Positions 3,201 to 36,200 are shown, numbered from the stretch's first letter. The stretch: DNA of 64,000 bases from Balanoglossus misakiensis (GCA_040954595.2 CM082588.2:7341947-7405946); one strand, 5' to 3'. Numbers and translations: made by a program. Notes: a model not told the origin generated them from the letters alone.

Positions 3201-5390
3201 GGAAATGCATGCAATGGTTGACGATTTGCCTTTTTTTCTGAATTTTGGAATGTACAGATGTACTTGAAGTACTGTAAAACACTTTTTTTTCGCGAGTCAA
3301 AATTTTCGCGATATCGAGAGAGGCCACTGTTACGCGAGTAATAATTTTCGCGTTTTCACACATTGTTCTTTCACAACTATATGTACGCGAGTCTTTATTT
3401 TTCGCGTTGTTTTGGCTCTCGCGTATTTAGCGTAAATTTAATGCTCGCGAAAATAAAGTGTTTTACAGTAACTAGAGTTGAATGATATGTAATCAGTACT
3501 AAATTGTCAATGGGTAGACAAACATAACAATCAATCAATCAATCAACAAAGTTTATTAGCGCCAAAATCCAAAAAGAAATTTTGCCCAATGACGCTCATG
3601 GTTAAACCACACTGTATGCTCTTTCGAACATATGAGTTTTAAGTTTTCTTTTGAAAGTCTCCAGGTTTGTAGATTCCCTGATGTCAAGAGGTAGTGCGTT
3701 CCACAGTTTAGGGGCTGCATAGGAGAAGGCACGGCCGCCATAAGTCTTGTTTTTGTAGGTTGTACATGTTAAAAGTTTCTTGGTGGATGAACGCAGTGTA
3801 CGAGTGGGAGTGTATGGCTGCAGTAGATCACTGATGTAAGCTGGAGTCTGGTTTTGGATAACTTTGAAAGTTATCAACAAAATTTTGTAGTCGATCCTGA
3901 GACGAACTGGTAACCAATGCATATGTTATGTCTAAACCTTGCTTACCTGTAAGGTTTTTCGCCCGTATGAGTTCTGACATGCTTTCGAAGGTCGCTTAGC
4001 GTTGTAAAATATTTAGTACACCCGTCTGAATCACAGTTGAAGGTTTCTCCTGAATGCAGTCGCTTGTGTGCTTTTAATCTGTGCAGACGAAGAGAGTTGT
4101 ACTTTGGTAATGGATTATGGACATATCATATCACGTGTGTGTGTGTGAGTGTGCACATTTGAGAACACTATGTATCTGTGTATAACTGTGTATGTATAGT
4201 ACGTGTACATGTGTGTGTCTGTATTTTGGACCACCAAACTCTGGACTGAATAGATAACCTTAAAGGGAAGCGGTCGCCGCCCCGCGTTTGTTTATTGATA
4301 AACATTAGAATTCATCCACAAATCCCTGAAATTAGATAATTCTTAGAATGAACGAAGCAGCCAACCGTAGCGTAGACTGGGCATGACAGCAACTGGAGAT
4401 CCTACTAGGTCGTGGCGACTGCAGTGGGGTTTGTGCTGGTATGGGAGGACATATTCTCATCAGGGGGAGGGGGGGGGGTTACACCAACGCGGCGCAACAA
4501 CTGCTAATTACAATGCTGGATGCCAGCAAATGATTATGTGTAGTGTAGAACTCCCAACATTCATGGGACAACTGGCCTCTCATGATGCCCTGTATTATTT
4601 CGGCACTTTGTACAAAAGTCAGTAGTATCATAACCACAGGCGTTGGAATCACACTGCTGTGATCTCCTAATTCAACCTGTAAATATCTGCAGCTTGAATC
4701 AAGTGATCGCAGAAGAGTGACTGAGTCTGGCGCTTATGATCATAACGGATGTGTTTATGTCACCTACCTGTATAGGGTGTTAAATGATTTGTTGCACTCT
4801 TGGAGTTCACATGAAAATGGCTTCTCATTGGTATGTACTCGAACGTGGATTTTTAAACTGTACGAGGTTAGAAACGCCTTCCCACATCCCGACTGCGAGC
4901 ACACAAAACTGTATTCTCCTTTGTGAGTCTTTTGGTGTGTTTTCAAATTACCCGCTGTACTATAGGTTCTCGTACAACCTTGGTAGCTGCATTTATATCG
5001 TTTGATTTCTTTTGTTTGGGTATTGGGATCGCTGGTTTCAAGCGTTAAGGTAGCTCCCCCGATATCTTCGGGCATGACATTTCCTGATGTGCTGATCTGC
5101 ATGTGAATCTGATCTGGTGAAATTGTGTGGTGTATAAAACATCCACTTTCGCCATCTTCGAGAACGTCGGTTTCCGCCATCATAGAATTGTCGCCGTCAC
5201 CGCAGCGGTGTCTCCCTTGTCCCATTCCTTCAATAAAAATCTGAGTCTGATCAAACTCGGTCGACACATAGTCGTCGTCGTTTTCAGCCGTCTCGTCCGG
5301 GTTTGTCTCTTCCTCCTCCTGGCTTTCGCTGCCATTGCCAAAATTACTGTCGGGTTGTTCTTCAAGTACAGTTCGCTCGTCGTCCGCCAT
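296..5390 (-). CDS. MTF1: Metal-responsive transcription factor 1 (six C2H2 zinc fingers), 5' part; continues beyond the window's left edge
   Basis: Phase-consistent GT-AG exons 5390-4768, 4078-3947, 2866-2793, 2068-1974, 1635-1480, 464-296. They encode [25 protein letters not shown]...[23 protein letters not shown] (six MTF1-type fingers), preceded by the conserved [15 protein letters not shown] segment. Start Met (MADDER, 5390) is inferred. Confidence 0.93.
1326..1418. mobile_element. Small piggyBac-like MITE (TTAA target site, CCCTT termini)
   Basis: ttaa-cccttccacc ... ggtggaaggg-ttaa inverted termini in an MTF1 intron. Confidence 0.55.
2570..2739. mobile_element. hAT-like MITE (second copy at 51161-51332)
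   Basis: cagtgtgccctctaa ... ttagaaggtacactg terminal inverted repeats; the same ~170 bp recurs at 51161-51332 with a near-perfect 8-bp flanking duplication (gatcctag/gatgctag). Confidence 0.6.
3270..3470. mobile_element. TA-flanked MITE (Tc1/mariner-like)
   Basis: tactgtaaaacacttt ... aaagtgttttacagta inverted termini; related copy at ~2183-2345 and a fragment at ~51690-51724. Confidence 0.65.
3527..3922 (-). mobile_element. 5'-truncated LINE (L2/CR1-group) 3' end
   Basis: [22 protein letters not shown]...[17 protein letters not shown]...[10 protein letters not shown] is the typical ORF2 C-terminus; followed on the minus strand by AATAAA and a (TTGA)n tail. Confidence 0.85.
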
Positions 5391-7791
5391 GATGGAAAAT
5401 TTGGTCGTGAAGACTGACAATATTATCAATATTCCAGTTCGACGATTCATCTTTGTGATAAATGAAATCAGCACGCAATGTTGTGAGTTTAAATCCTATA
5501 TACGATTTTACAAAAAATAATAAATGTTTATATTAGAGAAAATATGGGCTATTCTGTGTGGAATAAAATATTTCATTGGATGAATCAACACTGAGCTAGA
5601 AATAATCCGATAACTATTTAAATGGTCTATGAGAGCTTGCATAATACAATGTACATTGCATGACGATACCATGGTAATGACAGATTTTTATCTAGGTGAA
5701 CGTGATATGAGAGCCGGCAAAGTGCAATATATGTTTTACTATGGGTGGGAATTCTCTTAGAGTTCGAACAATTTTAAAAGTCTATTTCGGAGAACTCACA
5801 AAGGTCATAGCGGGTTACCTTGATTAACTTTCGGAATTGAACGTTGGTGGCGCTGCCGGACAGACGAGGTCACCTCCAGGTTACTTTCTTTGTTTTACCT
5901 GTAAAGTTTACAATTCTGTTACTTTTTTACGGCCCAAAGAACAATAATAGGAGAAAGGCTTGATGTATAGGTGGAAGAAATGGTATAGTCAACGACATTT
6001 TCTATCAACACGAGAATAGACAATAGATAAAACTTGGCTTAGGCCAATATTATTGTGATGCTGACAGGGACTGTGATTCCTGATTCCTCAACTATCTCCT
6101 ACAATTTCCGATTGTTACTTTGTCAATATGAACTGACATACAACAAATAACACTTTGACACCTCGGTTTGTCCAATTGGAATATATTTGCTGTGTTGTTG
6201 ATTTGCACCAACGTACAAAGTCCACGTGAGCCTCGGTATGGCAATAACCAAGCGCACAAATTTTCCACCTGTTGTCCGACGACCAAAATGGCGGTGTGAC
6301 TTTTTATGTTCAACAAGACTTGAAAATGCTGCAGACATCTGGTTAATGGTAATCCCAGCCTTGCACACATTCTTGTATGCTCTGACTTAAATCTTCGGAG
6401 ACAACAATTGAACACCATAGGAGGGTGAAACTCTTCAACAGGTGAGAAATCATAGAAATAACAGACGAGTCAGCGTTTTTAAGTGGGTGTGGGCGGGGTT
6501 AGGCAAACAGCCGATATTTCCTCCTATATTGTCTGGGTGCCACTAGAAGGAAGTGTAAAATGGCGCTGACTTCAGAAAGGTGTGAATCCGCGCAAATATA
6601 CAAACAACCTTAAACTTCTGTCCTGTGTGTCGGTGTGTCGGTCCTAATAGATTGTGTGGCCTGACATTTATATACTCGACAACCACTTTTACACCACGGC
6701 GGAGTGAAAACACTTCAACAGGTGAGCATTTCATGAACGCGCATAGCAATGTAGATAGTGTCATATTCGATAATTACACGCAGTTGCTCCTAATCAATTA
6801 AATTGACCATTGGCAGTCACCTTTACATTTCAAGAAAGACGAAGTTTGTTCAATGTTGATTTTTATACCAAACGGGTCTTAAATTTCTATTCGGACAAAG
6901 GGCGTATATCGGTCACCTCATATCGACTACATGTATATGATTTATTGTCCTGCCGTTTTTTCAACTAACATATGTCCTAGAAAATGGACACTCTAACAGA
7001 ATGTTCTCTACGCAAAGATGACGTTGTTTAGACAACCATTTACAATATTTTAAAATGTATAACAATGACCCATTACTTAACAGTGATAGTGACCAATCAC
7101 AGATTTTCAGTGGTTGCACACGCGAAAAAAGAGCGCCACCATACGTTCTTTCGAACACTCAAATACGCCATTTCAGCTATATATGGCGATATGTTAGTTG
7201 GAGGTGACCGTATACCTTTCAGGATTGTATTTAATATTTAATTGATGCACCGTTGCTGTCTAATGCACGAATCAATTATTGTTGGCTGTACTTTGAACTG
7301 TATCCATGACAACCGAGGCTGAAAGGCCTAGAAGAGTGCGTCAACCTCACAAACAAAGTTTTGGAAGTGTGCCAATTCTGGCGTCGCGATTCCTGACGTG
7401 TCACGTCTCAGTACAGATATGTGGTACATTGACAAACGTTGTACAAATGCTTTACTTAAAACTGATCCAGATTAATGGAAAGTAAAACCTTGTTGTGAAA
7501 TAATATTTGAGTTTTTGTTGCCATTGTATCAAAACCATTTTCTGAACAGGAACAGTACTGTTTAAAATATCATAGACCAGTATGTACCACCGTTTACCGA
7601 TAAATGGTGGTAATGACGCTGTGCTCACATTGTAGGTTGATGTAGACATTTCGAATGGTAGTTCTCGTTTCATAAAATACATAATGTCTACTGACCGATT
7701 CACTCGCATTTTACAGCAAATACCTTTTAGAAATACCGGTAGTATAAAAATATCTCTATAAACACGAACCTAATTTTATTCTCAATTAGAA

Positions 7792-10700
7792 ATGGCAAAG
7801 GTGAAGAATCGTTTGTTGGTTGTCGGAGAGGAATGGTGGCCGAGAAGTCGCAATATTGCAACATGTCTTACTGAGAGACAATTGGCCATCGATCATGCTG
7901 ATGGAAACAACCAGGTTTACTTCATGGCGTTACAGGCTTCTGACAAAGAAGTTGAAGAAGCAAGGCGTCATGGAGTGGAGTTGATTCTCCCAATCAAAGA
8001 AGGGAAGCCGACAAGTGATTGGTTAATTTTACACGAACACTATTTTCAACAGTTAAAGAAATATCGCCCAATTACGACCATATACGGTACTGCTTGTAAG
8101 GATGGAACTGCCAGTACAGCAAAGAGTATTCAAGCGAAGGTTTTCCCATCTGCGGACTTCGTTCCTGTCTATTCTGACATACCGGAAAACATGAACCTCA
8201 ATCCTTCAGACTTGGCTGCTAAAGATGATGAAATGATGCAATATGCAGAGACGTCCTCTGTCATTATATCTGTTGGACCAACAGTACACGAGGAGTTGAA
8301 GATGAAGATTCGAGCTCTGCTAGACTCACAAGTGGAGAATGTTCTGTACATTCCTTGGATGAAGAAAGATGTAGACGAGATTTCGCTCAAGAAAAGAGAC
8401 TTAAAGACTGTTGAAGTCTTATCTGTGCACACAATATCAGACCTACAGGATCTGGAGGAATTCGAAACAGCAGCTCGAGGCATGGGGAAACTTGCTTACG
8501 CGTACAGTTATATTCCCAGAGACACAAAGTGGAAGTTCAAAGGATTTATAGCGTCAGATCCTGCGCAATGCAAAACGTGTAAGCAGAAGCTAGAGACGAT
8601 GGCTGAGTCAGATCAGTTAATTGTCAATCTATACCGAAACGACACACCAATAAACCAGTTAAAGAAAGACTTGAGGCAGTGTGACATCCTGGTAAACTTC
8701 ACAACTAAAGGCGACCCATTTGGTGTGATTGGTCTTCTATCCTGCGCTGCTGGTGTGCCCACTGTACAGCCAAGGCAATCAGGTCTTGCAAACTTCACAA
8801 AAGAACACTTCCCCTTACTCGGTGTACCATACTGTGACGTGGGACCAAACGAAAATGTCAAGAGCGGAAGTGAAAAGTGGGCACGTGCTGTCAATGGTAT
8901 CATAAGTGATTATGACCGTGCAAAGAATGCGGCACAAGAACTGAAGACGGCACTGCAAATATCTGCTGAGAATGGTGTTATTGCTGACCACCACAAGAAG
9001 CTTTTGAAAAGTGTACGTTGTCCTACAGAATGTGATGACCCTGCTGAAGAGCCTTCCAAAGGTAAGTGGTGATACATGAAAGAGACGATTAAGTACATGT
9101 TTTTATAGAAACATTATTCGATCCTTTTAACGAAACATAGTAAATCGCCATATTAGACATATTTTCCAATTTAAAAATTAACCGATGCAGCGTAGTGATA
9201 AAAGCATTTCAATACACAAAAGCTATTAAAAGTTTTACCAAAATCAATTTGCGCTTGAAGTGTTTATGTAGATTAAATGGAAAGGTGATGGTAAATTCTA
9301 ATACGTAATTTCACACCTGTCACTAGGGGAAAAGAAAACATTTCCTTACAAAGGACAACAAGCTTTGAATTCCGGTAGCAGCCAAACCGAAAAGCAAGTC
9401 CAAGATGTCCCTAGCAACAACGGGTCCAAAAATGGTGATCTGAATAATGGTGAAGGTGGCCAGCAAAATCCTGACAGTGGACAGACGCATGAAGTTCAAC
9501 ACTCAGTCAACTCGAATCTGGGTAAGGGTGCTGATTGGGTACATTTGTACGCCTAGTGAAAATTACTCGTCTGTCCTTATAAAACAATATTCATACAATA
9601 TTCAAACTGAAAACCAAATGAAATGGTTCTCGTGGCCCCAGCACAGAAGATAATGCACGGAACTATAGTTGCTCACATTCACTCGTCCCTGTATACTACT
9701 TATTGTATCGTTCGTCATATAATTTGATGATGCATTTGCCAATATATGATGTAGAATACAGTTGTGTAATGAAACAAAATGAGGTTTGAATTAAGAACAT
9801 ATTTGTACTCGAGGATGTCTCTCTTCATGTTGAGCAATGGAAACGTTCGTTTATGCGTTTGTTTGTTTGTTTGTTTGTATTGTCTGTCTGGTGTATGTGT
9901 TTGTGTTTAGATCAAGTGAATAGGGACTCGCTTAATTCTTATCTGGGCAATTAAAACATCCATTGCGGATGTGGATTTTGTCTTTGAAATTTTGTGATAG
10001 GTCTTGCTTCGAATCCTGTACAACACATGTCAATTCTAATACATTGTACTCATTGTATGTTATTTCAGGGGAAATAGTAGTCAAGCTTAAGGTGTCTGGT
10101 CCAACCTTGACTCCAGACCAGGTTGAACTCATCGAAAATGAGATAATCAACAACAGCAGCTCTGAAAACGATTTACCAAAAGTCAAAGAGCATCTCAACA
10201 GTGTGGGAAACATACAAATTGAAGAAATTAAGCGGGGTAGTGTAAATGTTGTATTGACTTGCCAGACATCAAAGTCAGTGGAGAGACTATGGCGTGACTA
10301 CAGGCAAGGGATACTGGGAGATCTGTTTAAGGCAGACATGATCACACCCGAATTGCTCCACAAACTCAATGTATCTGACGTTAACCTGAAGACAACCATA
10401 GAGACATGGAGATATCAACTATGTCTGGCAGAATTGAAGTACTTCAAGGAAGGCAAGTCTAATAGTTTAACAATGTAGTTATTGTTGCCGAACATTGTGT
10501 ATTCGTTTGAATTGAAGGATTTTACCTGAAACATTTGGTTATTTCCATTTCCAGACTCATGTCTGCGTTGTGTCTTTGTCGTACTTTCTATTTGTACACT
10601 CACGTTCTTATGGATCATTGTCAAAATTGCAAATGCGTTCAACGATATATGTCATGACGATTTCGTCACTTTAATTATTATAGGCTATGTACCGGAAGTG

Positions 10701-13700
10701 AAATCTTCTGAGGTCTGTGGTTTATGTGGAGAAAAGTGTACAGAACTTGGAGAGATGTTGACTAAACAAGGTAATTACTATTTATGGATGGCAGCATTTG
10801 GCAAGAATTATTTTTCAAGTTGAGTGTTTCTGTGACTGCTTTTGTTTCTAGCTGACAGGCCATGAGTTTAAAGATTTTTTTCATTGGCACTTAAGAATTC
10901 AATCAGAAGAAAAAAATACTGTTGAAAAATTCTCTTTTATGAGAATGCATATCATTTATTGAGCCTTTCTCTGCGTCGTTTGTGAATGTAGATGACAAGA
11001 GCGCAGTTGTTGCCGTGGAGACTGACAGGTCTGTCTATGCCACACGCCAAAACAGAATCGGTTTATCAAAACTACTTGGTGGTTCCGGCACTTTGGAAGC
11101 TGAGATAGATGTTGATGTGGGAGACACACAGACACCAATCGTATTGTTGATAAAAATACAGCGCCCTCTACAGTTGTCTTCGTTGATGGATGAACGGCCA
11201 GAAGTTCTTGGTGTCCTTGGAATCAGACGGTGTTTGATTTTGGATAGCCAACAGTTGTCTTCGATCACCTTACAAGAGGGAGAGACATTCAGATATGATA
11301 GAGAAGGTTAGTGTTCACAAACATTTAGGCAGGGAAGTTGGTCAAACAATACTATATTCAACGAATCAAAACAAATAAGCTTGCTGCTGAAATTTGTTCT
11401 ACAGGGAATGTTTTGGTTTAGTTGGCTGCTTGTTGTAGTATGATTCTAAAGATAGGTCTGTACTATTTTCGCATTGATTTGCACATCGAGCGAAAATTAA
11501 AATAGATAGTGCCCATTTATTTGCATTTCACGACCTCCGACCCAATTGCAAAGGGGGTTACATCATATCAATCATATATATAACATTTTGCTACAATGTT
11601 AAATCACATTTTCATCAGAACTGAAGAGACTTGTCAATCAAAGTGGCGTCAACATCTTGAAAACTGGCACCAAAGAATCGGACAAGATTCTGGCGGAATC
11701 TTTTTCAAAAGAAGGAGCTGCTCGTGTTTTGGAACCAATCTCGACAGACAACTATCTCTCTGTCATCACTTCGCTCTTTAACGAAATCAAGGAGATTAGA
11801 GAACTACTACAATCCAAGAAGATGGAATATACGATCCTTAAGGGGAAAAGTGAAGAAAGTGAGCAGTCACATGAGCTTCTGAAGAAAATGATGGAAAGCA
11901 GTGAAACTCAAAGTTCCAAACTACTCACGACAAATACCAAGCTGAAAGACAACATCCGACAGTTACATCAGACTATCGATGAACTTCAGGAAACAAAAAC
12001 TGCAATTGCGCCACCTGTAGACAAAAACATCGAAGGTAATGCAGTTATCTGCAACATATCCATCCATCCATTATATCATCTCCTCCAAATAAACAAAATA
12101 TGCTCCCAACAAGTTCAATTATAGGCCGTATTTATTTTCTATTACAATCTTGTGTCCAGGAGCAAAAGTGAATTTCCGAGTTCGGTCTGAAAAACTTCCC
12201 CTTCTTTTCCGCAATTGACATTCCTTGCAAAATGATTATACATGGTCCGGCATATTTATTTTACAACTAAATTTTTAGTTTGCGTCACTTTCAACTGATT
12301 TTCCCAAGGGAATATCGTTTCAATAAACTCGATCAATATTGACGCCGGATATTTTGGTTGTTTTAGTTTCTTTTGGGAGACACTTTACGCTCTGGCGCTA
12401 ACTAATATTTCATTCACTCAACTCAACACTCTCACAGAATGTTGGAATACCATAATTAAAAAGCTTTTTTTTTCAATAGACCAATCTCAATTTAAAATTA
12501 AAATCATGAAATCAGTTTATAACCCAAATTGTTTTTACTATTCAATAGAATTTTCGTTTACACACAAACCGGAATTGAAGCATACAGCAAAGTCCTATGA
12601 AGAAATACTGCAGAGATTTCCCTGCCATTTTACCTGGAAACTCGAAGAATTTTGTGACAAGAGTTTTGAGGTGAGGATATTTATTTGCATTATTTGCATT
12701 TGAAGTACAGGTTTGTGAAATTTTAAAGCATTTCATAACAGCTGTATCTGAATTGTTGAAATGTCACGAAAACCAAGGAAATTTTTATTTCTCTCAGATG
12801 TTAATAATGACGCAAATTGAATTATAAAAAGCAACATGCTGAATATCCACTTTTTGCATCATTTAAAGTGTAATATTTAAAAATTTGTCAATCATTAGAG
12901 TTTTCTTCATCAATCACATCTTCTTATTTCATTCCAATCATGCGTCTGATGTTTTCACACACAGGTATTTTATTAATTGGAAGGTGGCTATAAACGATAA
13001 ATCAGTAGCTTAGACGATCTCACGATATTGCGTCATACGACAAGTTCGAGCCTATACCCCACTGACACATAAGGAGATTTCTTTATCTGTTTATGTTTCA
13101 GTAGGGTATAGGCCCGAACATAGCGCGAGCGCTCCTATGACGTGAAATCGGGAGATATTATCGTTTTTAGCTACCTTTATTACAATCAATAAAATACCAA
13201 CATATCATCTGTACAAGCACCTGGGTTTTCACATGACACTGTAACATGCCTTTCCATGTACTGTAGGTCTTACAGAGCAGATTGGACGACAGACTTAAAT
13301 ATCACAACCAGGCGTTCTCTCCAGTTCCCCATAAAGCTATGGAAGGTTACCTGTACGTGTCCAAACTGAGATCAGAAGACAAGAGAGATCCAAGCGCCGC
13401 TTTGAAGTGGTTTGATGACGCCCTCACCGACAACCAGAAAGAACTCGACAGCTGTGATGGTGACGACGATGGTCCACTTGGTGATAAGTTGGTTCTTCTT
13501 GCAGATAAAGCATGGGTTCATTTCATGTCGGGTGAGATGAAAAGAGTTGATGAAACACTGAAGTTGATAGCAACTTTGTCACTTGATAAATTGTCAGGGA
13601 AAGAGAAAGCGTATGTATATGCTCACAAGGGTGTCTCTCTTGCTTATTTTGTCAAGAAAACGTGTGATGAGGGAGTTGATAGCTTTGATCGTGCTTTAGT

Positions 13701-14478
13701 AGAACTTCCAGAACAAACAGATTGGCTGTTTTGGCAAGCACTTGTCCTTTTACAAAAACGTGATCGTGTCTGTATAGATTCAAAATGTAAGGAAGCTTTA
13801 CAAATAATGGCACAAGAAAGAAATTTGCTTGAGAGAGTTCTTAAGAAAAATGCCCATCACAGCTATGCTTTGGCGCTTTTAAGTGACCTGTCACTCAATG
13901 AAGGTCGCTATGAAGAAGCAGGTCAACTCACCCAGAAAGCACTCGAATTAACCCCTTTATCCCATTTCGTGGTGGATTCTGCATATCTTTATTACTGCCA
14001 CAGCAATGTTGGAGACTTCGAAAAAGCACTGCAAGTTATTCACAATGCTGCAGCACAAGATCCAGACAATCCATTTATCGCGTGGAACCTAGGAGTCACA
14101 TACGTGACCAAATACCGACGCAATCCGATAGAAAGCAATCGTCAGTGCCTGTTAAAAGCCATAGAGTGTTTCGACAAAGCAGTTGCATATGCAGGTGGTT
14201 TGTATCCCGACGCTTCTCTCCAGAAGGCCCGTGCCCTCAGATACTTGAAACAGTACAGTGATGCATATGAAATATATACCCATCTGATCAGCACCCTCCG
14301 TGACCCATGTTACATACTATGGGCATGTTATGGTCTTGCCTTGGTTTACCAAGCACAAGATGACTCTGCCAAAGCACTGAAATACCTAAACATAACAGAA
14401 GCCTGTGGTCAGGAGTATTGCTGGGGCAAGCATGCACTGGAGTACAAAGCAAGCTTATCTGAACAGAAAAAGAACTAA
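7792..14478 (+). CDS. Copy 1: GT4-like / TRADD-N-like / coiled-coil / IFIT-like TPR multidomain protein (~1333 aa)
   Basis: Exons 7792-9061, 9327-9521, 10069-10452 (GC donor), 10684-10770, 10992-11306, 11619-12035, 12549-12670, 13267-14478 join in frame (4002 nt). Motifs: DPFGVIGLLSCAAGVP (GT-B); RGSVNVVLTCQTSKSVERLWRDYRQGIL (TRADD-N-like); PCHFTWKL plus TPRs (IFIT-like). An acceptor AG at 7788-7789 implies an upstream exon. Confidence 0.85.
12964..13198. mobile_element. Fold-back MITE in intron 7, shared by all three copies (also ~25197-25433 and ~44512-44747)
   Basis: ggtattttatt...aataaaatacc termini with a nested internal palindrome gttcg(a/g)gcctataccccactgacacataa...ttatgtgtcagtggggtataggcccgaac. 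Confidence 0.7.
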
Positions 14479-19958: not shown

Positions 19959-22900
19959 ATGGCAAAGGTGAAGAATCGTTTGTTGGTTGTCGGAGAGGAG
20001 TGGTGGCCGAGAAGTCGCAATATTGCAACATGTCTTACTGAGAGACAATTGGCCATCGATCATGTTGATGGAAACAACCAGGTTTACTTCATGGCGTTAC
20101 AGGCTTCTGACAAAGAAGTTGAAGAAGCAAGGCGTCATGGAGTGGAGCTGATTCTCCCAATCAAAGAGGGGAAGCCGACAAGTGATTGGTTAATTTTACA
20201 CGAACACTATTTTCAACAGTTAAAGAAATATCGCCCAATTACGACCATATACGGTACTGCTTGTAAGGATGGAACTGCCAGTACAGCAAGGAGTATTCAA
20301 GCGAATGTTTTCCCATCTGCGGACTTCGTTCCTGTCTATTCTGACATACCGGATAACATGAACCTCGGTCCTTCAGAATTGGCTGCTAAAGATGATGAAA
20401 TGATGCAATATGCAGAGACGTCCTCTGTCATTATATCTGTTGGACCAACAGTACACGAGGAATTGAAGATGAAGATTCGAGCTCTGCTAGACTCACAAGT
20501 GGAGAATGTTCTGTACATCCCTTGGATGAAGAAAGATGTAGACGAGATTTCGCTCAACAAAAGAGACTTAAGTAAGACTATTGAAGTCTTATCTGTGCAT
20601 ACGATTTCAAACCTACAAGATCTGGAGGAATTCGAAGCAGCAGCTCGTGGCATGGAGAAAGTAGCTAAGATTTACAGTTATTTTCACAGAGAAATAAAGT
20701 GGAAGTTCAAAGGACTGTTAGTGTCTACACCATGTAAGAAGATTCAGCAGCAGCTGGAGACGATGGCGAAGTCAGATTGGTTAGTCATCAATTTATACCC
20801 AAACGACACATCGATAGACCAGTTAAAGAAAGATTTGAGGCAGTGTGACATCCTGGTAAACTTCACAACTAAAGGCGACCCATTTGGTGTGATTGGTCTT
20901 CTATCCTGCGCTGCTGGTGTGCCCACTGTACAGCCAAGGCAATCGGGTCTTGCAAACTTCACAAAAGAACACTTCCCCTTATTTGGTGTACCATACTGTG
21001 ACGTGGGACCAAAGGAAAATGTTGACAGCGGAAGTGAAAAGTGGGCACGTGCTATCATGGAGATTCTGAGTGAATATGGTCGCGCCAAGAAAACATCACA
21101 GGAATTGCAGTCAGCACTCCACAAATCGGCAGAGGATGGTGTTATATCTGACAACCAAACGAAACTCATGGGTTGTGTTGCTTGTCCTGGGGATTGTGTC
21201 GATCCTGTAGAAGAGCCCCCCAAAGGTAAATACAATGCAATAAATAGATAGAAGGGTAACAGATAACAGAATCACGTGTTGCCAGTTAACGGCTACGCAA
21301 AATATCTTCGTTAAAGAGAATCAAAACAGTGTAATAAATGATGGTCAGCTTAAGAATTAAAACAGCTGTTGAGTGAATTGATATTCTGTTTTATTAATTA
21401 AATTACAGCTAAAATCAAATTTTGTAAGTTGTAGTATTTTTATTATGCGCTAGGTAAGGAGGAAACACTTAAAGACCAACAACCCAAGAATTCTGGTGGC
21501 AGCCAAGCAGAAAAGCAAGTCCAAGATGTCCCTAGCAACAACGGGTCCAAAAATGGTGATCTGAATAATGGTGAAGGTGGCCAGCAAAATCCTGACAGTG
21601 GACAGACGCATGAAGTTCAACACACTCTCAACTCGAATCTGGGTAAGGGTGCTGATTGGGTACATTTGTGCGCCTAGTGAAAATTACTTGTCTGTCATTA
21701 TAAAACAATATTCATACAATATTCGAACTGAAAACCAAATAAAATGGTTCACGTGGCCCCAGCACAGAAGCTAACGCACGGAACTATAGTTGCTCACATT
21801 CACTCGTCCCTGTATACTGGTTATTGTATCGTTCGTCAAATAATTGGATGATGCATTTGCCAATATATGATGTAGAATACAATTGTGTAATGAAACAAAA
21901 TGAGGTTTGAATTAAGAACATATTTGTACTCGAGGATGTCTCTCCACATGTTTAGCAATGGAAACGTTCGTTTATGCGTTTGTTTTGTGTTTTTGTTTGT
22001 TTGTTTGTTTGTTTGTTTGTTTGTTTGTTTGTGTTTGTTTGTTTGTTTGCTTGCTTGTTTGTTTGTTTGTTTGTTTGTTTGTTTGTATTGTCTGTCTGGT
22101 GTCTGTGTGTTGTGTTTAGATCAAGTGAATAGGGACTCGCTTAATTCTTATCTGGGCAATTAAAATATCCATTGCGGATGTGGATTTAATCAGTGAAATT
22201 GTGTGATAGGTCTTGCTTCGAATCCTGTACAACACATGTCAATTCTAATACAATGTACTCATTGTATGTTATTTCAGGGAAAATCGTAGTCAAGCTTAAG
22301 GTGTCCGGTCCACCCTTGACTCCAGACCAGGTTGAACTCATCGAAAACGAGATAATCAACAACAGCAGCTCTGAAAACGATTTACCAAAAGTCAAAGAGC
22401 ATCTCAACAGTGTTGGAAACATACAAATTGAAGAAATCAAGCGGGGCAGTCTGAATGTTGTATTGGCATGCCAGACATCAAAGTCAGTGGAGAGACTATG
22501 GCGTGACTACAGGCAAGGGATACTGGGAGATCTGTTTAAGGCGGACATGATCACACCCGAATTGCTCCACAAACTCAATGTATCTGACGTTCACCTGAAG
22601 ACAACCATAGAGACATGGAGATATCAACTATGTCTGGCAGAATTGAAGTACTTCAAGGAAGGTAAGTCTAATATTTTAACAATGTGGTTATTGTTGCCGA
22701 ACATTGTGTATTCGTTTGAATTGAAGGATTTTACCTGAAACCTTTGGTATATTTCCATTTCCAGACTCGTGTCTGTGATGTGTCTTTGTCAAACTTTCTA
22801 TTTGTACACCAACGTTCTTATGGATCATTGTCAAAATTGCAAATGCGTTCAACGATATATGTCATGACGATTTCGTCACTTTAATTATTATAGGCTATGT

Positions 22901-25900
22901 ACCGGAAGTGAAATCTTCTGAGGTCTGTGGTTTGTGTGGAGAAAAGTGTACAGAACTTGGAGAGATGTTGACTAAACAAGGTACAGTAATTACTATTTAT
23001 GGATGACAGCATTTGGCAAGAATTATTTTTCAAGTTGAGTATTTCTATGACTGCTTTTGTTTCTAGCTGGCAGGCCATGAGTTTGAAGATTTTTTTTCAT
23101 TAGCACTTAAGAATTCAACCAGAAGAAAAAATACTGTTGAAAAATACTCTTTTATGAGAATGCATATCATTTATTGAGACTTTCTCTGCGTCGTTTGTGA
23201 ATGTAGATGACAAGAGCGCGGTTGTTGCCGTGGAGACTGACAGGTCTGTCTATGCCACACGCCAAAACAGAATCGGTTTATCAAAACTACTTGGTGGTTC
23301 CGGCACTTTGGAAGCTGAGATAGATGTTGATGTGGGAGACACACAGACACCAATCGTCCTGATGATAAGAATACAGCGCCCTCTACAGTTGTCTTCGTTG
23401 TTGGATGAACGGCCAGAAGTTCTTGGTGTCCTGGGAATCAGACGGTGTTTGATTTTGGATAGTCAACAGTTGTCTTCAATCACCTTACCAGAGGGAGAGA
23501 CATTCAGATATGATAGAGAAGGTTAGTGTTCACAAACATTCCTTTTAACAGAAAAATCGTAGTGCAGGGAGTTTGGTCAAACAATACTCTATTCAACTAC
23601 ATTGTAATCAAAACAAATAAGCTTGCTGCTGTAATTGTTCTAAAGGGGTTTGATTTTAAAGGTAGGTCTGTACTATTCTCCCATTGATTTGCACATCGAG
23701 CATAAACTAAAAAAGATAGAGCCCATTTATTTGCATTCCACGGCCCCCGACACAATTGCAAAGGGGGTTAAATCGTATCGATCATATATAACATTTTGCT
23801 AACAATGTTGAATCACATTTTCATCAGAACTGAAGAGACTTGTCAATCAAGATGGCGTCAACATCTTGAACACTGGCACCAAAGAATCGGACAAGATTCT
23901 GGCGGAATCTATTTCAAAAGAAGGAGCTGCTCGTGTTTTGGAACCAATCTCGACAGACAACTATCTCTCTGTCATCACTTCGCTCTTTAACGAAATCAAG
24001 GAGATAAGACAACTACTACAATCCAAGAAGATGGAATATACAATCCTTAAGGGGAAAAGTGAAGAAAGTGAGCAGTCACGTGAGCTTCTGAAGAAAATGA
24101 TGGAAAGTAGTGAAACTCAAAGTTCCAAACTACTCACGACAAATACCAAGCTGAAAGACAACGTCCGACAGTTACGTCAGACGATCGATGAACTTCAGGA
24201 AACGAAAACTGCAACTGCGCCACCTGTAGACAAGAACATCGAAGGTAATGCAGTTATCTGCAACATATCTATCCATCCGTTGTATCATCTCCTCCAAATA
24301 AACAAAATATGCTCCCAACAAGTTCAATTATAGGCCGTATTTATTCTCTATTACAATCTTGTGTCCAGGAGCAAAAGTGAATTTCAGAGTTCGGTCTGAA
24401 AATCTCCCCCTTCTTTCCCGCAATTGACATTCCTTGCAAAATCATTATACATGTTCCGGCATTTTTATTTTACAACAAAATTTTTAGTTTGCGTCACTTT
24501 CAACTGATTTTCCCAAGGGAATATCGTTTCAATAAACTCGATCAATATTGACGCCGGATATTTTGGTTGTTTTAGTTTCTTTTGGGAGACACTTTACGCT
24601 CTGGCGCTTACTAATATTTCATTCACTCAACTCAACTCTCTCCCAAAATGTTGGAATACCATAATAAAAAAGCCCCTTTTTTAATGGAGCAATCTCAATT
24701 TAAAATTAAAATCATGAAATCAGTTTATAACCCAAATTGTTTTTACTATTCAATAGAATTTTCGTTTACACACAAAATGGAATTGAAGCATACAGCAAAG
24801 TCCTATGAAGAAATACTGAAGAGGTTTCCCTGCCACTTTACCTGGAAACTCGAAGAATTTTGTGATCATAGTTTAGAGGTGAGGACATTTATTTGCGTAT
24901 TTGAAGTACAGGTTTGTGAAATTTTAAAGCGTTTCATAACAGCTGTATCTGACTTGATGGAATTTCACAAAATTAAACACGGAAATGTTTGTCGAACTCC
25001 TATTCCACTCAGATGTTAATAATGACAGAAACTGTAACATAAGAAGCAACATGCTGAATATCCAGTTTTCGCATCATTTTAAAAAAATTGTCAATCATTT
25101 GTTGGCAAGTGAGTTAATGAGACCACCCTAGAGTTTTCTTCATCAATTAAATCTTCTTATCTCATTTAAATCATGCGTCTGATGTTTTCACAGACAGGTA
25201 TTTTATTAATTGGAAGGTGGCTAAAAACGATAAATCAGTAGCTTAGACGATCTCTCGATTTCGCCTTATAAGAGCTATGTTCGGGCCTATACCCCACTGA
25301 CACATAAAGAGATTTCTTTATCTGTTTATGTGTCAGTGGGGTATAGGCCCGAACATAGTGTGAGCGCTCGTATGATGTGAAATCGGGAGATCTTATCATT
25401 TTTAGCTACCTTAATTACAATCAATAAAATACCAACATAGCATCTGTACAAGCACCTGTATTTTCACATGACACTGTAACATGCCTTTCCATGTACTGTA
25501 GCTCTTACAGAGTGATTTGGACAACACCCTTAAATATCACAACCAGGAGTTCTCTCCAGTTCCCCATAAAGCAATGAAAGGTTACCTGTACATGTCCAAA
25601 CTGAGATCAGAAGACAAGAGAGATCCAAGTGTCGCTTTGAAGTGGTTTGATGACGCCCTCACCGACAACCAGAAAGAACTCGACAGCTGTGATGGTGACG
25701 ACGATGGTCCACTTGGTGATAAGTTGGTTCTTCTTGCAGATAAAGCATGGGTTCATTTCATGTCGGGTGAGATGGAGAGAGTTGATGAAACGCTTAAGTT
25801 GATAGCAACTTTGTCACTTGATAAATTGTCAGGGAAACAGAAAGCGTATGTATATGCTCACAAGGGTATCTCTCTGACTTATTTTGTCAAGAAAATGTGT

Positions 25901-26713
25901 GATGAGGGAGTTGATAGCTTTGATCGTGCTTTAGTAGAACTTCCAGAACAAACAGATTGGCTGTTTTGGCAAGCATTCTCTCTTTCACGAAAACGTGTTC
26001 GTGTCTGTATAGATTCAAAATGTCAGGAAGCTTTACAAATAATGGCACAAGAAAGAAATTTGCTTGAGAGAGTTCTTAAGAAAAATGCCCATCACGGCAA
26101 TGCTTTAGCACTTTTAAGTGACCTGTCACTCAATGAAGGTCGCTATGAAGAAGCAGGTCAACTCATCCAGAAAGCACCCGAATTAACCCCTTTATCCCAT
26201 TTCACGGTGGAGTATGCACGTCGTTATTACTGCCACAGCAATGTTGGAGACTTCGAGAAAGCACTGCAAGTTATTCACAATGCTGCGGCACAAGATCCAG
26301 ACAATCCATTTCTCGCGTTTAACCTAGGAGTCACATACGCGACCAAATACGAACACAATCCGATAGAAAGCAATCGTCAGTGCCTGCTAAAAGCCATAGA
26401 GTGTCTCGACAAAGCAGTTGCATATGCAGGTGGTTTGTATCCCTTTGCTTCTATCTTGAAGGCCGCTGCCCTCGCATACTTGAAACAGTACAGTGATGCA
26501 TGTGAAATATATACCCATCTGATCAGCACCCTCTCTGACCCATATCACATAATATGGGCATGTTATAATCTTGCCCTCGATTACCAAGAACAAGATGACT
26601 CTGCCAATGCACTGAAATACCTAAACATAACAGAAGCCTGTGGTCAGGAGTATTGCTGGGGCAAGCATGCACTGGAGTACAAAGCAAGCTTATCTGAACA
26701 GAAAAAGAACTAA
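19959..26713 (+). CDS. Copy 2: GT4-like / TRADD-N-like / coiled-coil / IFIT-like TPR multidomain protein (~1330 aa)
   Basis: Exons 19959-21225, 21454-21642, 22278-22661, 22894-22980, 23207-23521, 23828-24244, 24757-24878, 25502-26713; all GT-AG, in frame (3993 nt). Confidence 0.85.
21980..22086. repeat. (TTTG)n microsatellite
   Basis: Expanded relative to the paralogous tracts at ~9858-9877 and ~41349-41394. Confidence 0.9.
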
Positions 26714-30298: not shown

Positions 30299-33200
30299 TT
30301 AGGGTTTCGAGACCAGAGGGGTCTCGAAACCCTCTTGAAATCGTGTTGTTAGGGTTTCGAGACCAGAGGGGTCTCGAAACCCTCTTGAAATCGTGTTGTT
30401 TTTTATTATTATTATTAGGGTTTCGAGACCAGAGGGGTCTCGAAACCCTCTTGAAATCGTGTTGTTTTTTATTATTATTATTATTATTCTTCTTCCCACT
30501 TTTAAAAACAGCCGCTATTCGAAGACCGTTGCACCCAATGACTTGAAATTTGGCTCATAGGTAAAACTCAAAGCAAGTAATTTTTTGATCATGTCACTAT
30601 GGCAACAGGTCACATGACCTGGCAGCCATCTTGGATTTAAACTTTTAAATTGGTCTAATTTGCATAAAAAATGAAGAATCCAAATTCTGTTCAGAAACTT
30701 TGTGGACCATATGGCCAGGGTCCTATATGCCAAATTTCAATGTCTAAGTCCTTGCCGATTTTGAGGAGATGATTTTTAAAGCATTATTTTTCATATTTTC
30801 CATGACCATTGGACCCAGCCATTGGCCTATACTTTCCATGGTTAAGCAATGGCCCCCTAGGATTTTAGATTTATGCCCAATATCTCAACATCCGCTGGGC
30901 TGATCAGCTTCAAATTTTGTTTGCAGCTAGCCTACCTTCCGACAATCAGTTCCAACTGGAAAAAATAATATCGACCGATTTTTTTATATTAATTTTTTTT
31001 ATGAAATCTATACCTATACTTATTCCACTATACTTAAGCTATGGCCACATAGTTTTGTAGAATTCTGGTCGGTGCAATAGTCTGCAGCATAGGACCAAAA
31101 TAAGAAGACAAATTTAAGGCTCACCTGTGACACCTGCTCAACTCATTAATTATGTGCATACCTAATTCCAGGCAAACCAATAGGGCTACAGGTCTGGTTT
31201 TTGTCGGACATGGACCAGTATGGGGTCAAATTTTTTCCCCAAATTTTGGGTGACCTTGGGTGACCTTTGACCTACTTTCGCATATCTCAGCATCCAGAGC
31301 AGGTACAGCTCAGGTGTTTGGGTGGATGGGACCAAAATAAGAAGCCAAATTTAAGGCTCCCCTGTGACACCTGCTCAACTCATTAATTATGTGCATACCT
31401 AATTCCAGGCAAACCAACAGGGCTACAGGTCTGTTTTTTGTCGGACATGGACCAGTATGGGGTCAATTTTTTTCCCCAAATTTTGGGTGACCTTGGGTGA
31501 CCTTTGACCTACTTTCGCATTTCTCAGCATCCAGAGCAGGTACAGCTCAGGTGTTTGGGTGGATGGGACCAAAATAAGAAGCCAAATTTAAGGCTCCCCT
31601 GTGACACCTGCTCAACTCATTAATTTTGTGCATACCTAATTCCAGGCAAACCAATAGGGCTACAGGTCTGGTATTTGTCGGACATGGACCAGTATGGGGT
31701 CAAATTTTTTCCCCAAATTTTGGGTGACCTTGGGTGACCTTTGACCTACTTTCGCATATCTCAGCATCCAGAGCAGGTACAGCTCAGGTGTTTGGGTGGA
31801 TGGGACCAAAATAAGAAGCCAAATTTAAGGCTCACCTGTGACACCTGCTCAACTCATTAACTATGTGCATACCTAATTCCAGGCAAACCAATAGGGCTAC
31901 AGGTCTGGTTTTTGTCGGACATGGACCAGTATGGGGTCAATTTTTTTCCCCAAACTTTGGATGTCCTTGGGTGACCTTTGACCTACTTTCACATATCTCG
32001 GCATCCAGAGCAGGTACAGCTTAGGTGTTTGGGTGGACGGGACCAAAATAAGAAGCCAAATTTTAGAGTCACCTGTGACAACTGCCTAACTCATTAATTA
32101 TGTGCATACCTAATTCCAGGCAAACCAGTAGGCTACAGGTCTGTTTTTTGTTTGACATGGACCAGTATAGCGTCAACATTTTCTGCTCATATTAAGCGTG
32201 ACCTCACGTGACCTTTGACCTACTTTTCCACATCTCAGCATCCACAGCACATACACCCTTGGCATTTGGAGTGATAGAACAACTTATGCAGTAATTAAAT
32301 ATGCACAAATCTATCTCCAGGCGAACCAATAGGGCTAGTAGTGTCTCGAAACCCGCTTATTGCTGTTCACAGCTATATTTATTATTATTATTATTATTAT
32401 TCTTCTTCCCACTTTTAAAAACAGCCGCTATTCGAAGACCGTTGCACCCAATGACTTGAAATTTGGCTCATAGGTAAAACTCAAAGCAAGTAATTTTTTG
32501 ATCATGTCACTATGGCAACAGGTCACATGACCTGGCAGCCATCTTGGATTTAAACTTTTAAATTGGTCTAATTTGCATAAAAAATGAAGAATCCAAATTC
32601 TGTTCAGAAACTTTGTGGACCATATGGCCAGGGTCCTATATGCCAAATTTCAATGTCTAAGTCCTTGCCGATTTTGAGGAGATGATTTTTAAAGCATTAT
32701 TTTTCATATTTTCCATGACCATTGGACCCAGCCATTGGCCTATACTTTCCATGGTTAAGCAATGGCCCCCTAGGATTTTAGATTTATGCCCAATATCTCA
32801 ACATCCGCTGGGCTGATCAGCTTCAAATTTTGTGTGCAGCTAGCCTACCTTCCGACAATCAGTTCCAACTGGAAAAAATAATATGGAAAATCGACCGATT
32901 TTTTTATATTAATTTTTTTATGAAATCTATACCTATACTTATTCCACTATACTTAAGCTATGGCCACATAGTTTTGTAGAATTCTGGTCGGTGCAATAGT
33001 CTGCAGCATGGGACCAAAATAAGAAGCCACATTTAAGGCTCACCTGTGACACCTGCTCAACTCATTAATTATGTGCATACCTAATTCCAGGCAAACCAAC
33101 AGGGCTACAGGTCTGATTTTTGTCGGACATGGACCAGTATGGGGTCAAATTTTTTTCCCAAATTTTGGGTGACCTTGGGTGACCTTTGACCTACTTTCGC

Positions 33201-36200
33201 ATATCTCAGCATCCAGAGCAGGTACAGCTCAGGTGTTTGGGTGGATGGGACCAAAATAAGAAGCCAAATTTAAGGCTCACCTGTGACACCTGCTCAACTC
33301 ATTAATTATGTGCATACCTAATTCCAGGCAAACCAATAGGGCTACAGGTCTGGTTTTTGTCGGACATGGACCAGTATGGGGTCAAATTTTTTCCCCAAAT
33401 TTTGGGTGACCTTGGGTGACCTTTGACCTACTTTCGCATATCTCAGCATCCAGAGCAGGTACAGCTCAGGTGTTTGGGTGGATGGGACCAAAATAAGAAG
33501 CCAAATTTAAGGCTCATCTGTGACACCTGCTCAACTCATTAATTATGTGCATACCTAATTCCAGGCAAACCAATAGGCTACAGGTCTGGTTTTTGTCGGA
33601 CATGGACCAGTATGGGGTCAAATTTTTTCCCCAAATTTTGGGTGACCTTGGGTGACCTTTGACCTACTTTCGCATATCTCAGCATCCAGAGCAGGTACAG
33701 CTCAGGTGTTTGGGTGGATGGGACCAAAATAAGAAGCCAAATTTAAGGCTCACCTGTGACACATGCTTAACTCATTAACTATGTGCATACCTAATTCCAG
33801 GCAAACCAATAGGGCTACAGGTCTGGTTTTTGTCAGACATGGACCAGTATGGGGACAATTTTTTTTCCCAAACTTTGGATGTCCTTGGGTGACCTTTGAC
33901 CTACTTTCACATATCTCGGCATCCAGAGCAGGTACAGCTTAGGTGTTTGGGTGGACGGGACCAAAATAAGAAGCCAAATTTTAGAGTCACCTGTGACACC
34001 TGCCTAACTCATTAATTATGTGCATACCTAATTCCAGGCAAACCAGTAGGGCTACAGATCTGGTTTTTGTTTGACATGGACCAGTATAGCGTAAACATTT
34101 TCTGCTCATATTAAGCGTGACCTCACGTGACCTTTGACCTACTTTTCCACATCTCAGCATCCACAGCACATACACCCTTGGCATTTGGAGTGATAGAACA
34201 ACTAATGCAGTAATTAAATATGCACAAATCTATCTCCAGGCGAACCAATAGGGCTAGTAGTGTCTCGAAACCCGCTTATTGCTGTTCACAGCTATATTTT
34301 TTTATTATTAGGGCCCAAGCGCATGCAGCGCTTGGGCCCTATTGGTATTATCCTGGTTTTTCTTCTTTTTTTTCTTGTGTAGTTTTTTCGGCCAATAGGA
34401 TCTTGAAAACGGCTGAACCTTCAAATTTCAAACTTGGCAAAATGGTGCAGGCCTATGAGAGCTGGTGCAGTACCCTTGTGAATGTTTAATTAGTCATGTG
34501 ACCTGTTGACCATATATGGGGAAAGTTTTCAAATGGGCCTAATTTGCATATGAATGGAGATATCAAAATTCTGTTAGGATACTTTGTGGACCATGTGGTC
34601 AGTGTCCAACATACCAAATATCAAGGCCGTGGGCCAAGTCTATTTTGAGAAGAAGACTTTTAAATATTATTAGTTTTTCATATTTTCGGACTAAGCCAAG
34701 GGCCTATACTGTATAGTTAAGCTATGACGCTATGTCCACGTCTGTGCAATGGTCCTGTACAGTGACTGTCTATTGGCCTGTAAGCAGAATGGGACCAAAA
34801 TAAAAGGCAAAATTTTTGGCTCACCTGTAACACCTGCTTAACTCATTAATTATGTGCATACCTAATTTTGGGCTAACTATTAGGGCTAGAGGTTTTGTTC
34901 TTGTGGAACATGGATCAGTATGGGGTCAAAAAAATTCGCCAAAATTTTGGGTGACCTCAGGTGACCTTTGACCTACTTTCCTATATCTCTGCATTCAGAG
35001 TAGGTACAGACTTGGCGTTTGGATGGTTGGGACTAAAATTGAAAAGCAAAAATTGGGGGTCACCTGTGGCACCTGCTTATCTCATTAATTATGTGCATAC
35101 CTAATTTTCGGCTAACTATTAGGGCTAGAGGTTTTGTTCTTGTGGAACATGGACAAGTATGGGGTCAAAAAAAGTTTGCCCAAATTTTGGGTGACCTCAA
35201 GTGACCTTTGACCTACTTTCCTATATCTCTGCATTCAGAGCAGGTACAGACTTGGCGTTTGGAGGGTTGGGACTAAAATTGAAAAGCCAAAATTGGGGGT
35301 CACCTATGACACCTGCTTATCTCATTAATTATGTGCATACCTAATTCAGGGATAACTAATAGGGCTACAGGTTTTGTTCTTATTGGACATGGACCAGTAT
35401 AGGGTCAAAATTTCTTGCCCAAATTTTGGGTGACCTCAGGTGACCTTTGACCTACTTAACCATATCTCAGCATCCAGAGCAAGTACAGCCTTGGCGTTTG
35501 GAGGGATGGGTTGAAAATGAAAAGTGAAATTATTAAGTCACCTGTAACACCTGGTGAACTCATTAATTATGTGCATACCTTATTCCAGACTAACCAATAG
35601 GGTTAGAGGTTTGATTTTTGTTGAACATGGACCAGTATGGGGTCAAAATTTCTTGCCCAACTTTTGGGTGATGACATATGACCTTTGACCTTCGGCTTAA
35701 GCTTGGGCCCGTCATCGCTGCTTGCAGCTATATTTATTATTATTATTCTTCTTCCCACTTTTAAAAACAGCCGCTATTCGAAGACCGTTGCACCCAATGA
35801 CTTGAAATTTGGCTCATAGGTAAAACTCAAAGCAAGTAATTTTTTGATCATGTCACTATGGCAACAGGTCACATGACCTGGCAGCCATCTTGGATTTAAA
35901 CTTTTAAATTGGTCTAATTTGCATAAAAAATGAAGAATCCAAATTCTGTTCAGAAACTTTGTGGACCATATGGCCAGGGTCCTATATGCCAAATTTCAAT
36001 GTCTAAGTCCTTGCCGATTTTGAGGAGATGATTTTTAAAGCATTATTTTTCATATTTTCCATGACCATTGGACCCAGCCATTGGCCTATACTTTCCATGG
36101 TTAAGCAATGGCCCCCTAGGATTTTAGATTTATGCCCAATATCTCAACATCCGCTGGGCTGATCAGCTTCAAATTTTGTGTGCAGCTAGCCTACCTTCCG

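Follow-up and report, generated by a model that had tools for sequence, protein, structure and literature searches.

Positive selection at predicted groove positions of an IFIT-like repeat domain in three tandem acorn-worm genes

The locus

Three tandem genes of the acorn worm Balanoglossus misakiensis encode large multi-domain proteins whose C-terminal tetratricopeptide repeat (TPR) domain is IFIT-like, as judged from sequence and predicted structure. The exon encoding most of this domain is under positive selection at groove positions. The genes lie in a window of 64,000 nucleotides (GCA_040954595.2 CM082588.2:7341947-7405946), the whole stretch of DNA that was analysed. Self-comparison of the window reveals three direct copies of a 7–10 kb block with about 92% identity. 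Each block is one eight-exon gene with a frame open throughout, giving 1333, 1330 and 1333 residues in copies 1, 2 and 3. In all copies the acceptors are AG, the donors are GT save for one GC in copies 1 and 3, and the phases agree. The divergent site is the intron 3 donor, which is GC in copies 1 (10453–10458) and 3 (41970–41975) and GT in copy 2 (22662–22667). The eight-exon fusion is a gene model built from sequence, and the same order of parts is found in NCBI proteins of other hemichordates. Glandiceps talaboti XP_077977119 and two Ptychodera flava proteins contain the same parts in the same order as the three copies. A GT4-conflict glycosyltransferase is followed by a TRADD-N-like domain, a beta module, a coiled coil and the IFIT-like TPR domain, so ordered that about 890 residues of GT4, TRADD-N and coil precede the last. 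The features are as follows.

7792–9061, plus strand: copy 1 exon 1, GT4-conflict glycosyltransferase domain (Pfam PF20706, exon ends, motif)
9327–9521, plus strand: copy 1 exon 2, low-complexity linker (splice sites, frame)
10069–10452, plus strand: copy 1 exon 3, TRADD-N-like domain (weak PF20694 match, donors)
10684–10770, plus strand: copy 1 exon 4, short CxxC exon, identical across copies (exon alignment)
10992–11306, plus strand: copy 1 exon 5, beta-rich module without a family (homologues by tblastn)
11619–12035, plus strand: copy 1 exon 6, predicted coiled coil (weak matches to several coiled-coil families)
12549–12670, plus strand: copy 1 exon 7, opening helix of the IFIT-like domain, bearing a CHFTW motif (PDB search)
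13267–14478, plus strand: copy 1 exon 8, IFIT-like TPR domain, hypervariable (alignment, Pfam, structure matches)
19959–26713, plus strand: copy 2, eight exons, 1330-residue frame; TPR exon 25502–26713
39284–46026, plus strand: copy 3, eight exons, 1333-residue frame; TPR exon 44815–46026

Pfam yields no match to a NACHT or NB-ARC nucleoside triphosphatase (NTPase) in any exon or full-length homologue, and no signal peptide or membrane segment is seen in the gene model. The three copies may be uncollapsed haplotypes; this would merely make paralogue diversity into allele diversity. One Ptychodera gene model continues into a second GT4 start, which suggests a tandem array in that genus too.

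Variation in the TPR exon

The three 403-codon exons 8 align without gaps. Amino acids differ in 81 of the 403 columns, 14 of them with three states, and a further 14 codons differ silently only. Exon 7 adds one three-state codon (K/H/W). A preliminary description of this DNA had quoted codons at 14209, 26444 and 45757, which are exact, together with peptide motifs, every one of which is present in the alignment. It had also noted a recurring helical spacing. This is borne out by the distances between variable sites in residues 199–403, which peak at 3, 4, 7 and 11. Measured at 100 degrees over the five A helices, the helical moment of variation exceeds that of within-helix shuffles (p=3.5e-4, 20,000 permutations). 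Variation thus favours one side of the A helices. With helix bounds taken from a first, single-sequence predicted model, variable positions number 30 of 73 in A helices and 11 of 78 in B helices (p=2e-4). The intervening helices, previously described as almost invariant, are indeed far less variable than the A helices but are not invariant. The same wording had been applied to the TRADD-N-like and alpha/beta exons. It holds for the TRADD-N-like exon (7 of 128 columns variable), the beta-module exon (5 of 105) and the CxxC exon (0 of 29), but not for the GT4 exon, where 72 of 424 columns vary, chiefly in copy 2. Two variable patches beyond those first noted occupy residues 1–12 and 159–171 of exon 8.

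The copies are mosaic. Copies 1 and 3 are nearly identical from late exon 1 to intron 2, and copies 1 and 2 at the end of exon 8. Past about residue 371 only copy 3 differs; copies 1 and 2 match almost completely over this stretch and in the 3′ flank. Segments are exchanged among the copies. Copy 2 is diverged in the second half of the GT4 exon, in intron 1 (42% mismatches) and in the linker (8400–9550 compared with 20570–21680), where copies 1 and 3 are alike. This stretch is a candidate conversion tract, or may stem from exchange with a more distant copy. Copy 2 alone also carries a Leu to Pro change at exon 8 residue 226 (about 26177) in helix B1, which may be damaging.

Placement on the predicted groove

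TPR positions 2, 5, 6, 9, 12 and 13 are the concave ligand contacts (PMC1261162). Repeat registers were set from Pfam and consensus anchors. At these canonical groove positions 20 of 30 sites vary; elsewhere on the A helices the count is 7 of 35 (p=2e-4). The count stays the same if repeat b is shifted by one. A register for the last repeat starting at 348 was dropped, since Leu7, Ala8, Tyr11 and Ala20 fit a start at 351. The proposed placement in the concave groove is supported, with the variable sites chiefly on that face and not scattered or on the convex side. The face is a predicted one, assigned from TPR register and alignment to IFIT5. Among 18 hemichordate homologues, too, the groove positions show the greater variability (entropy 2.4 versus 1.6). 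The variable elements of copy 1 exon 8 are listed below, with states given for copies 1/2/3.

13267–13302, plus strand: variable helix, residues 1–12; residue 1 aligns with Glu33 of IFIT5, where the model is of low confidence
13741–13779, plus strand: variable patch, residues 159–171, covering the equivalents of IFIT5 Tyr185, Arg186 and Asp189
13963–14001, plus strand: helix A2 (233–245); 237 D/E/P, 238 S/Y/Y and 241 L/R/H correspond to IFIT5 Arg253, Tyr254 and Lys257
14071–14121, plus strand: helix A3 (269–285); 273 W/F/C, 274 N/N/Y and 280 V/A/A correspond to IFIT5 His287, Gln288 and Arg294
14206–14244, plus strand: helix A4 (314–326); groove positions vary at 6/6, others at 0/7
14305–14355, plus strand: helix A5 (347–363); groove positions vary at 5/6

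A second data set consists of public contigs from two runs of one sample, covering 14190–14370. The sample may be the assembly source or a pool, and the contigs indicate extra variants, not copy number. They contain 27 variant rows, 23 of them at codon positions 1–2. Nineteen of the 27 fall in 11 groove codons out of about 48, and one falls in helix B4. Eighteen contig letters are absent from the three copies, 10 of these in groove codons. At codon 322 all four bases occur at both the first and the second position.

Positive selection on the exon

Codon site models were fitted to the three sequences with the authors' own likelihood code and naive empirical Bayes assignment of sites. For exon 8, comparison of M2a with M1a gives twice the log-likelihood difference (2dL) as 83.4, with an omega of 24.8 on 12% of codons and 23 sites above 0.9; M8 against M8a also gives 83.4. 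Removal of the two ends leaves 70.4. The value is 37.7 when double and triple nucleotide changes are allowed, 21.3 with site-to-site rate variation, and 17.4 when multiple hits are added to the latter. By region, 2dL is 40.1 for A helices, 0.0 for B helices and 2.2 for the GT4 exon. Exons 2–7 give 12.3, with roughly 0.5% of codons in the selected class. The highest value among 62 strongly mosaic simulations under neutrality is 20.6.

Pairwise ratios of nonsynonymous to synonymous substitution (dN/dS) agree with this regional pattern. The exon 8 values are 1.0, 1.8 and 1.8. In A helices they rise to 2.9, 6.7 and 4.6, compared with 0.5–0.7 in B helices, and dS in A helices (0.04–0.07) is no higher than in B helices (0.06–0.10). 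The seven other exons jointly give 0.35–0.42, and the GT4 exon, at 0.3–0.4, is under purifying selection. The selection suggested in the preliminary description is supported, with A-helix ratios well above one and site models that reject neutrality. The IFIT-like TPR exon is under positive selection at predicted groove positions.

Relationship to the IFIT family

Several lines of evidence point to an IFIT-like C-terminal domain, an identity absent from the preliminary description, as is the GT4-conflict domain at the gene's start. In a PDB search the Glandiceps homologue has human IFIT5 residues 7–365 as its best natural match (E=4e-10). The CHFTW-containing exon 7 has a sole PDB match, IFIT2 6–26, at E=0.67. 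With the copies' own sequence, PDB searches return IFITs only at E=0.0015–0.2, ranked below designed TPRs, and in two sub-region searches no IFIT was among the matches. The top Atlas clusters are IFITs (0.97) and TTC22 (0.96). A second predicted model has a mean local confidence (pLDDT) of 68, with residues 1–40 and 109–148 mostly below 50. Its template-modelling (TM) scores against IFIT1 and IFIT5 are 0.53–0.65 (IFIT5 0.65), and other chains compared score at most 0.49. In a fold search with this model the top 12 of 961 chains are all IFITs (Z 24.4–20.7, root-mean-square deviation 5.5–7.2); the next chain has Z 19.9.

The TPR exon (near lengths) and the GT4 exon (longer) yielded no homologue in word-indexed searches; relatives came from a profile search. 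Twenty full-length relatives among the 150 listed comprise 18 named IFIT, one 'uncharacterized' and one without a name. The 18 are from hemichordates (14), echinoderms (3) and an eel (1). In a quick, unrooted tree of 31 rows, with no outgroup and no TTC22 sequence, the copies fall within the hemichordate group, sister to Ptychodera XP_070569242/XP_070568966 and apart from fish-type rows. The domain is filed as IFIT-derived and not as an IFIT, because two defining IFIT features fail: the RNA-binding residues and the stand-alone, near-single-exon gene.

Twenty-five RNA-site residues of IFIT5 were taken from tables in PMC9677429. Seventeen were mapped via the Glandiceps homologue, and eight were dropped as gapped, of low confidence or outside the alignment. 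Ten of the 17 equivalents vary, compared with 35 of 209 other positions in residues 120–345 (p=3e-4). Arg186, Arg253, Lys257, Gln288 and Arg294 of IFIT5 are Q/R/Q, D/E/P, L/R/H, N/N/Y and V/A/A in copies 1/2/3. The basic residues of the RNA tunnel are thus mostly lost. Aromatic and aliphatic residues make up most of the groove, and by net charge the domain is neutral to acidic (K+R 45–51, D+E 51–58). A family alignment recovers the 186, 250–257 and 287–291 columns in fish-type rows. Stand-alone hemichordate IFIT-like proteins have Arg at the 254 column in 10 of 11 with a residue there, and Lys or Arg at 186 in 11 of 11. In the subclade of the three copies the counts are 0 of 6 and 1 of 7. The stand-alone proteins (P0009, P0014, P0015, P0016, P0022 and others) share a conserved Gln-Arg-x-x-Glu/Gln at the IFIT5 253–257 columns, which differs from the vertebrate Arg-Tyr-x-x-Lys.

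N-terminal modules

The GT4-conflict family PF20706 matches all three copies at 103–108 bits (copy 1 107.8; cut-off 26). The EX7E motif is the donor-binding motif of GT4 enzymes (PMC8760489). Its position reads D-x7-L in all copies (copy 1 codon at 8713) and D-x7-M/L in homologues. The GT4 domain may be atypical or inactive, because the motif is altered in copies and homologues alike. The TRADD-N family PF20694 is matched at 17.7–20.1 bits (E=6e-4 to 3e-3; copy 1 20.1 bits, 6e-4), below the cut-off of 23.7, and the Glandiceps homologue gives an equally weak, sub-threshold match. Exons 4 and 5 match no Pfam family. The exon 5 beta module is 38–45% identical in hemichordate homologues by tblastn. 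It is kept across three hemichordate genera, with two copies in Glandiceps, where the coil is duplicated too, and also in Ptychodera; its positions include 688–789 and 909–1006 in homologue P0001 and the N-terminus of P0008.

Proposed function and alternatives

The proteins are best explained, with fair though far from complete confidence, as cytosolic immune sensors. Their positively selected, predicted groove would recognise a pathogen ligand that varies, probably protein or peptide and not 5′-triphosphate RNA, and would be coupled to a predicted output through GT4 and TRADD-N. In the proposed mechanism, duplication and gene conversion would give rise to copies whose groove linings differ and which each recognise a different invader ligand. 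Once bound, the protein would cluster via the coiled coil and the TRADD-N-like adaptor, and GT4 would in turn glycosylate either the invader or a partner from the host. If the altered EX7E has left the enzyme inactive, GT4 might act only as a signalling scaffold. The groove would follow a fast-changing ligand, likelier a protein than an RNA backbone. A broader proposal is advanced tentatively and is itself doubtful: that acorn worms rebuilt the IFIT fold, regarded as an RNA sensor of jawed vertebrates, into an extensive repertoire of variable receptors, turning an RNA tunnel into a hypervariable site shuffled by conversion among many copies and wired to GT4 without an NTPase, in parallel with the nucleotide-binding, leucine-rich-repeat-type (NLR) receptors.

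A number of findings weigh against the sensor interpretation. The selection tests use only three sequences, the authors' own code and naive empirical Bayes. Nominal p-values are too small, because 9 of the 62 mosaic-null runs exceed the nominal 5% level. The most permissive null, with multiple hits and rate variation, leaves just 17.4. Exon-wide dN/dS for copy 1 versus copy 2 is 1.0, and silent differences at groove codons (pS, their proportion) are raised in two of three pairs (0.20, 0.11, 0.02). On the structural side, the single-sequence model is not IFIT-specific: its fold search gave general TPRs, with IFIT2 at rank 18. Parts of the second model lie below pLDDT 50, and the mapping of Lys150 is not reproduced in the family alignment. 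At the N-terminus, the GT4 domain is without either Glu of EX7E and the TRADD-N match is below its cut-off.

An unlikely alternative is that the domain still binds RNA 5′ ends, its tunnel lining diversifying to read viral caps or 5′ sequences. The variable residues do map onto the IFIT5 RNA site, the whole fold best matches RNA-bound IFIT1 and IFIT5, and vertebrate IFITs are under positive selection (PMC12543323, PMC12570964). Yet no copy keeps the equivalents of Arg253, Gln288 or Arg294, and at each of the Arg186 and Lys257 positions just a single copy has a basic residue. An aromatic and aliphatic groove in a neutral-to-acidic domain also speaks against RNA, whose backbone is a conserved ligand.

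A smaller chance still is given to the groove being a decoy or target for a pathogen antagonist, with variation as escape or bait and GT4/TRADD-N as a guard output. Such a decoy would leave the same signature, and selection on IFIT2 and IFIT3 has been read as antagonist-driven (PMC12570964). The domain also derives from a family whose stand-alone members keep conserved residues. Against a decoy, the changes extend across the entire concave face and seven helices, as in a ligand-binding surface; sequence alone cannot separate the two readings.

That there is no selection at all, and that relaxed constraint, mutation hot spots and conversion from divergent donors made the pattern, is highly improbable. 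The copies are mosaic, groove pS is raised in two pairs, and the rate-variation null takes 2dL from 83 to 21. However, relaxation cannot yield A-helix dN/dS of 3–7 at B-helix-like dS. Conversion tracts cannot track a 3.6-residue period, and the exposed convex B helices are conserved. None of the 62 mosaic nulls comes near 83, and 23 of the 27 contig variants fall at codon positions 1–2.

Self/non-self and gamete recognition systems also yield strong diversifying selection, but as the driving force here, in place of pathogen defence, such recognition is the least credible account, given that no signal peptide or membrane segment is seen and that GT4-conflict, TRADD-N and IFIT are immune-associated domains.

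Comparison with known systems

The copies resemble the vertebrate IFITs (IFIT5, IFIT1, IFIT2) in the CHFTW start, the homology to IFIT5 7–365 through the Glandiceps protein and the best fold match, as well as in tandem expansion and positive selection. They differ in that the domain is fused behind GT4, TRADD-N and coil, is split by an intron and has mostly lost the basic RNA residues. Vertebrate IFITs are stand-alone proteins of nearly one coding exon (PMC3688568), compared with eight coding exons and several domains here. In primate IFIT1 the three best-supported selected sites are not known RNA-binding residues, two lying outside the tunnel and one at its lid (PMC12543323); here the RNA-site equivalents are selected. 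IFITs have been placed in jawed vertebrates only, with acorn-worm proteins excluded from the family (PMC3688568). Databases now label many hemichordate proteins 'IFIT-like'. The copies nest among such proteins of hemichordates and echinoderms (Ptychodera, Glandiceps, Saccoglossus, Antedon, Holothuria). These names are automatic, and stand-alone members retain a Gln-Arg pair in columns 253/254, which the copies' subclade lacks.

GT4–TRADD-N fusions occur in cnidarians, cephalochordates and hemichordates; they have been described as proteins with a predicted counter-invader role, and their GT4 domain is predicted to modify invader molecules (PMC8195603). Metazoan proteins of this kind, with a TRADD-N of the DEDD2 clade, share the order of GT4-conflict, TRADD-N-like domain and C-terminal repeats with the copies (PMC8195603). 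They also share a variable C-terminal repeat module and lineage expansion, here a TPR module in three tandem copies. At least eight Branchiostoma rows of GT4-GTase+TRADDN-DEDD2+TPRs, one named TTC28-like, are listed in supplement 4 of PMC8195603. The repeats named there are TTC28-like TPRs and leucine-rich repeats, with no selection analysis of repeats in the sections covered. IFIT is absent from its main text, and in the 12 supplements covered, out of 13, it occurs as chance letters only; a hemichordate row may lie elsewhere in the source.

TPRs of fungal NLRs (PMC4986451) and of Ectocarpus NB-ARC proteins (PMC3341825) are likewise under positive selection in presumed immune receptors, and in Podospora NLRs the selection maps to the concave face (PMC4986451). 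Those receptors have an NTPase of the STAND class (signal transduction ATPases with numerous domains), near-identical repeats, and variation in repeat number or exon shuffling (PMC4986451, PMC3341825). The acorn-worm copies, in contrast, have no NTPase and carry fixed, divergent repeats in one exon, with diversity between gene copies. A literature search, largely without subscription journals, returned no report on hemichordate IFIT–GT4 fusions or selection on them, nor one in which the tunnel lining of an effector-fused IFIT fold is under selection.

Already on record are GT4–TRADD-N–TPR architectures, hemichordate IFIT-like annotations and concave-face selection in fungal TPRs. New here is the joining of these known parts, with a selected surface that is the predicted IFIT tunnel lining. 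The result places IFIT-type domains in invertebrate deuterostomes, contrary to the published jawed-vertebrate origin, and points to an IFIT-fold ligand tunnel that is re-tuned instead of conserved. GT4–TRADD-N proteins of marine invertebrates gain a concrete predicted sensor surface. The three proteins are near-identical, most of their differences falling at some two dozen groove residues; they form a ready set for swap and binding comparisons, and bear on the nature of the ancestral IFIT ligand.

Repeats and flanking genes

Intron 7 of each copy contains an imperfect palindrome of about 235 bp (12964–13198, 25197–25433 and 44512–44746). Contig depth there is very high and ends are loose, and the palindrome is probably a miniature inverted-repeat element. 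The stretch that separates copy 2 from copy 3 contains, at 30465–37647, three 1.9-kb units (98% identity) and a diverged one. These units have no long open reading frame and no Rfam match, and each contains a 237–240 bp tandem array. The flanking genes are a C2H2 zinc-finger gene (4767–5495, minus strand), which resembles MTF1; a peptidase M50 gene (52164–54061, minus strand), which resembles site-2 protease; and a multi-C-type-lectin gene (57000–63000, plus strand).

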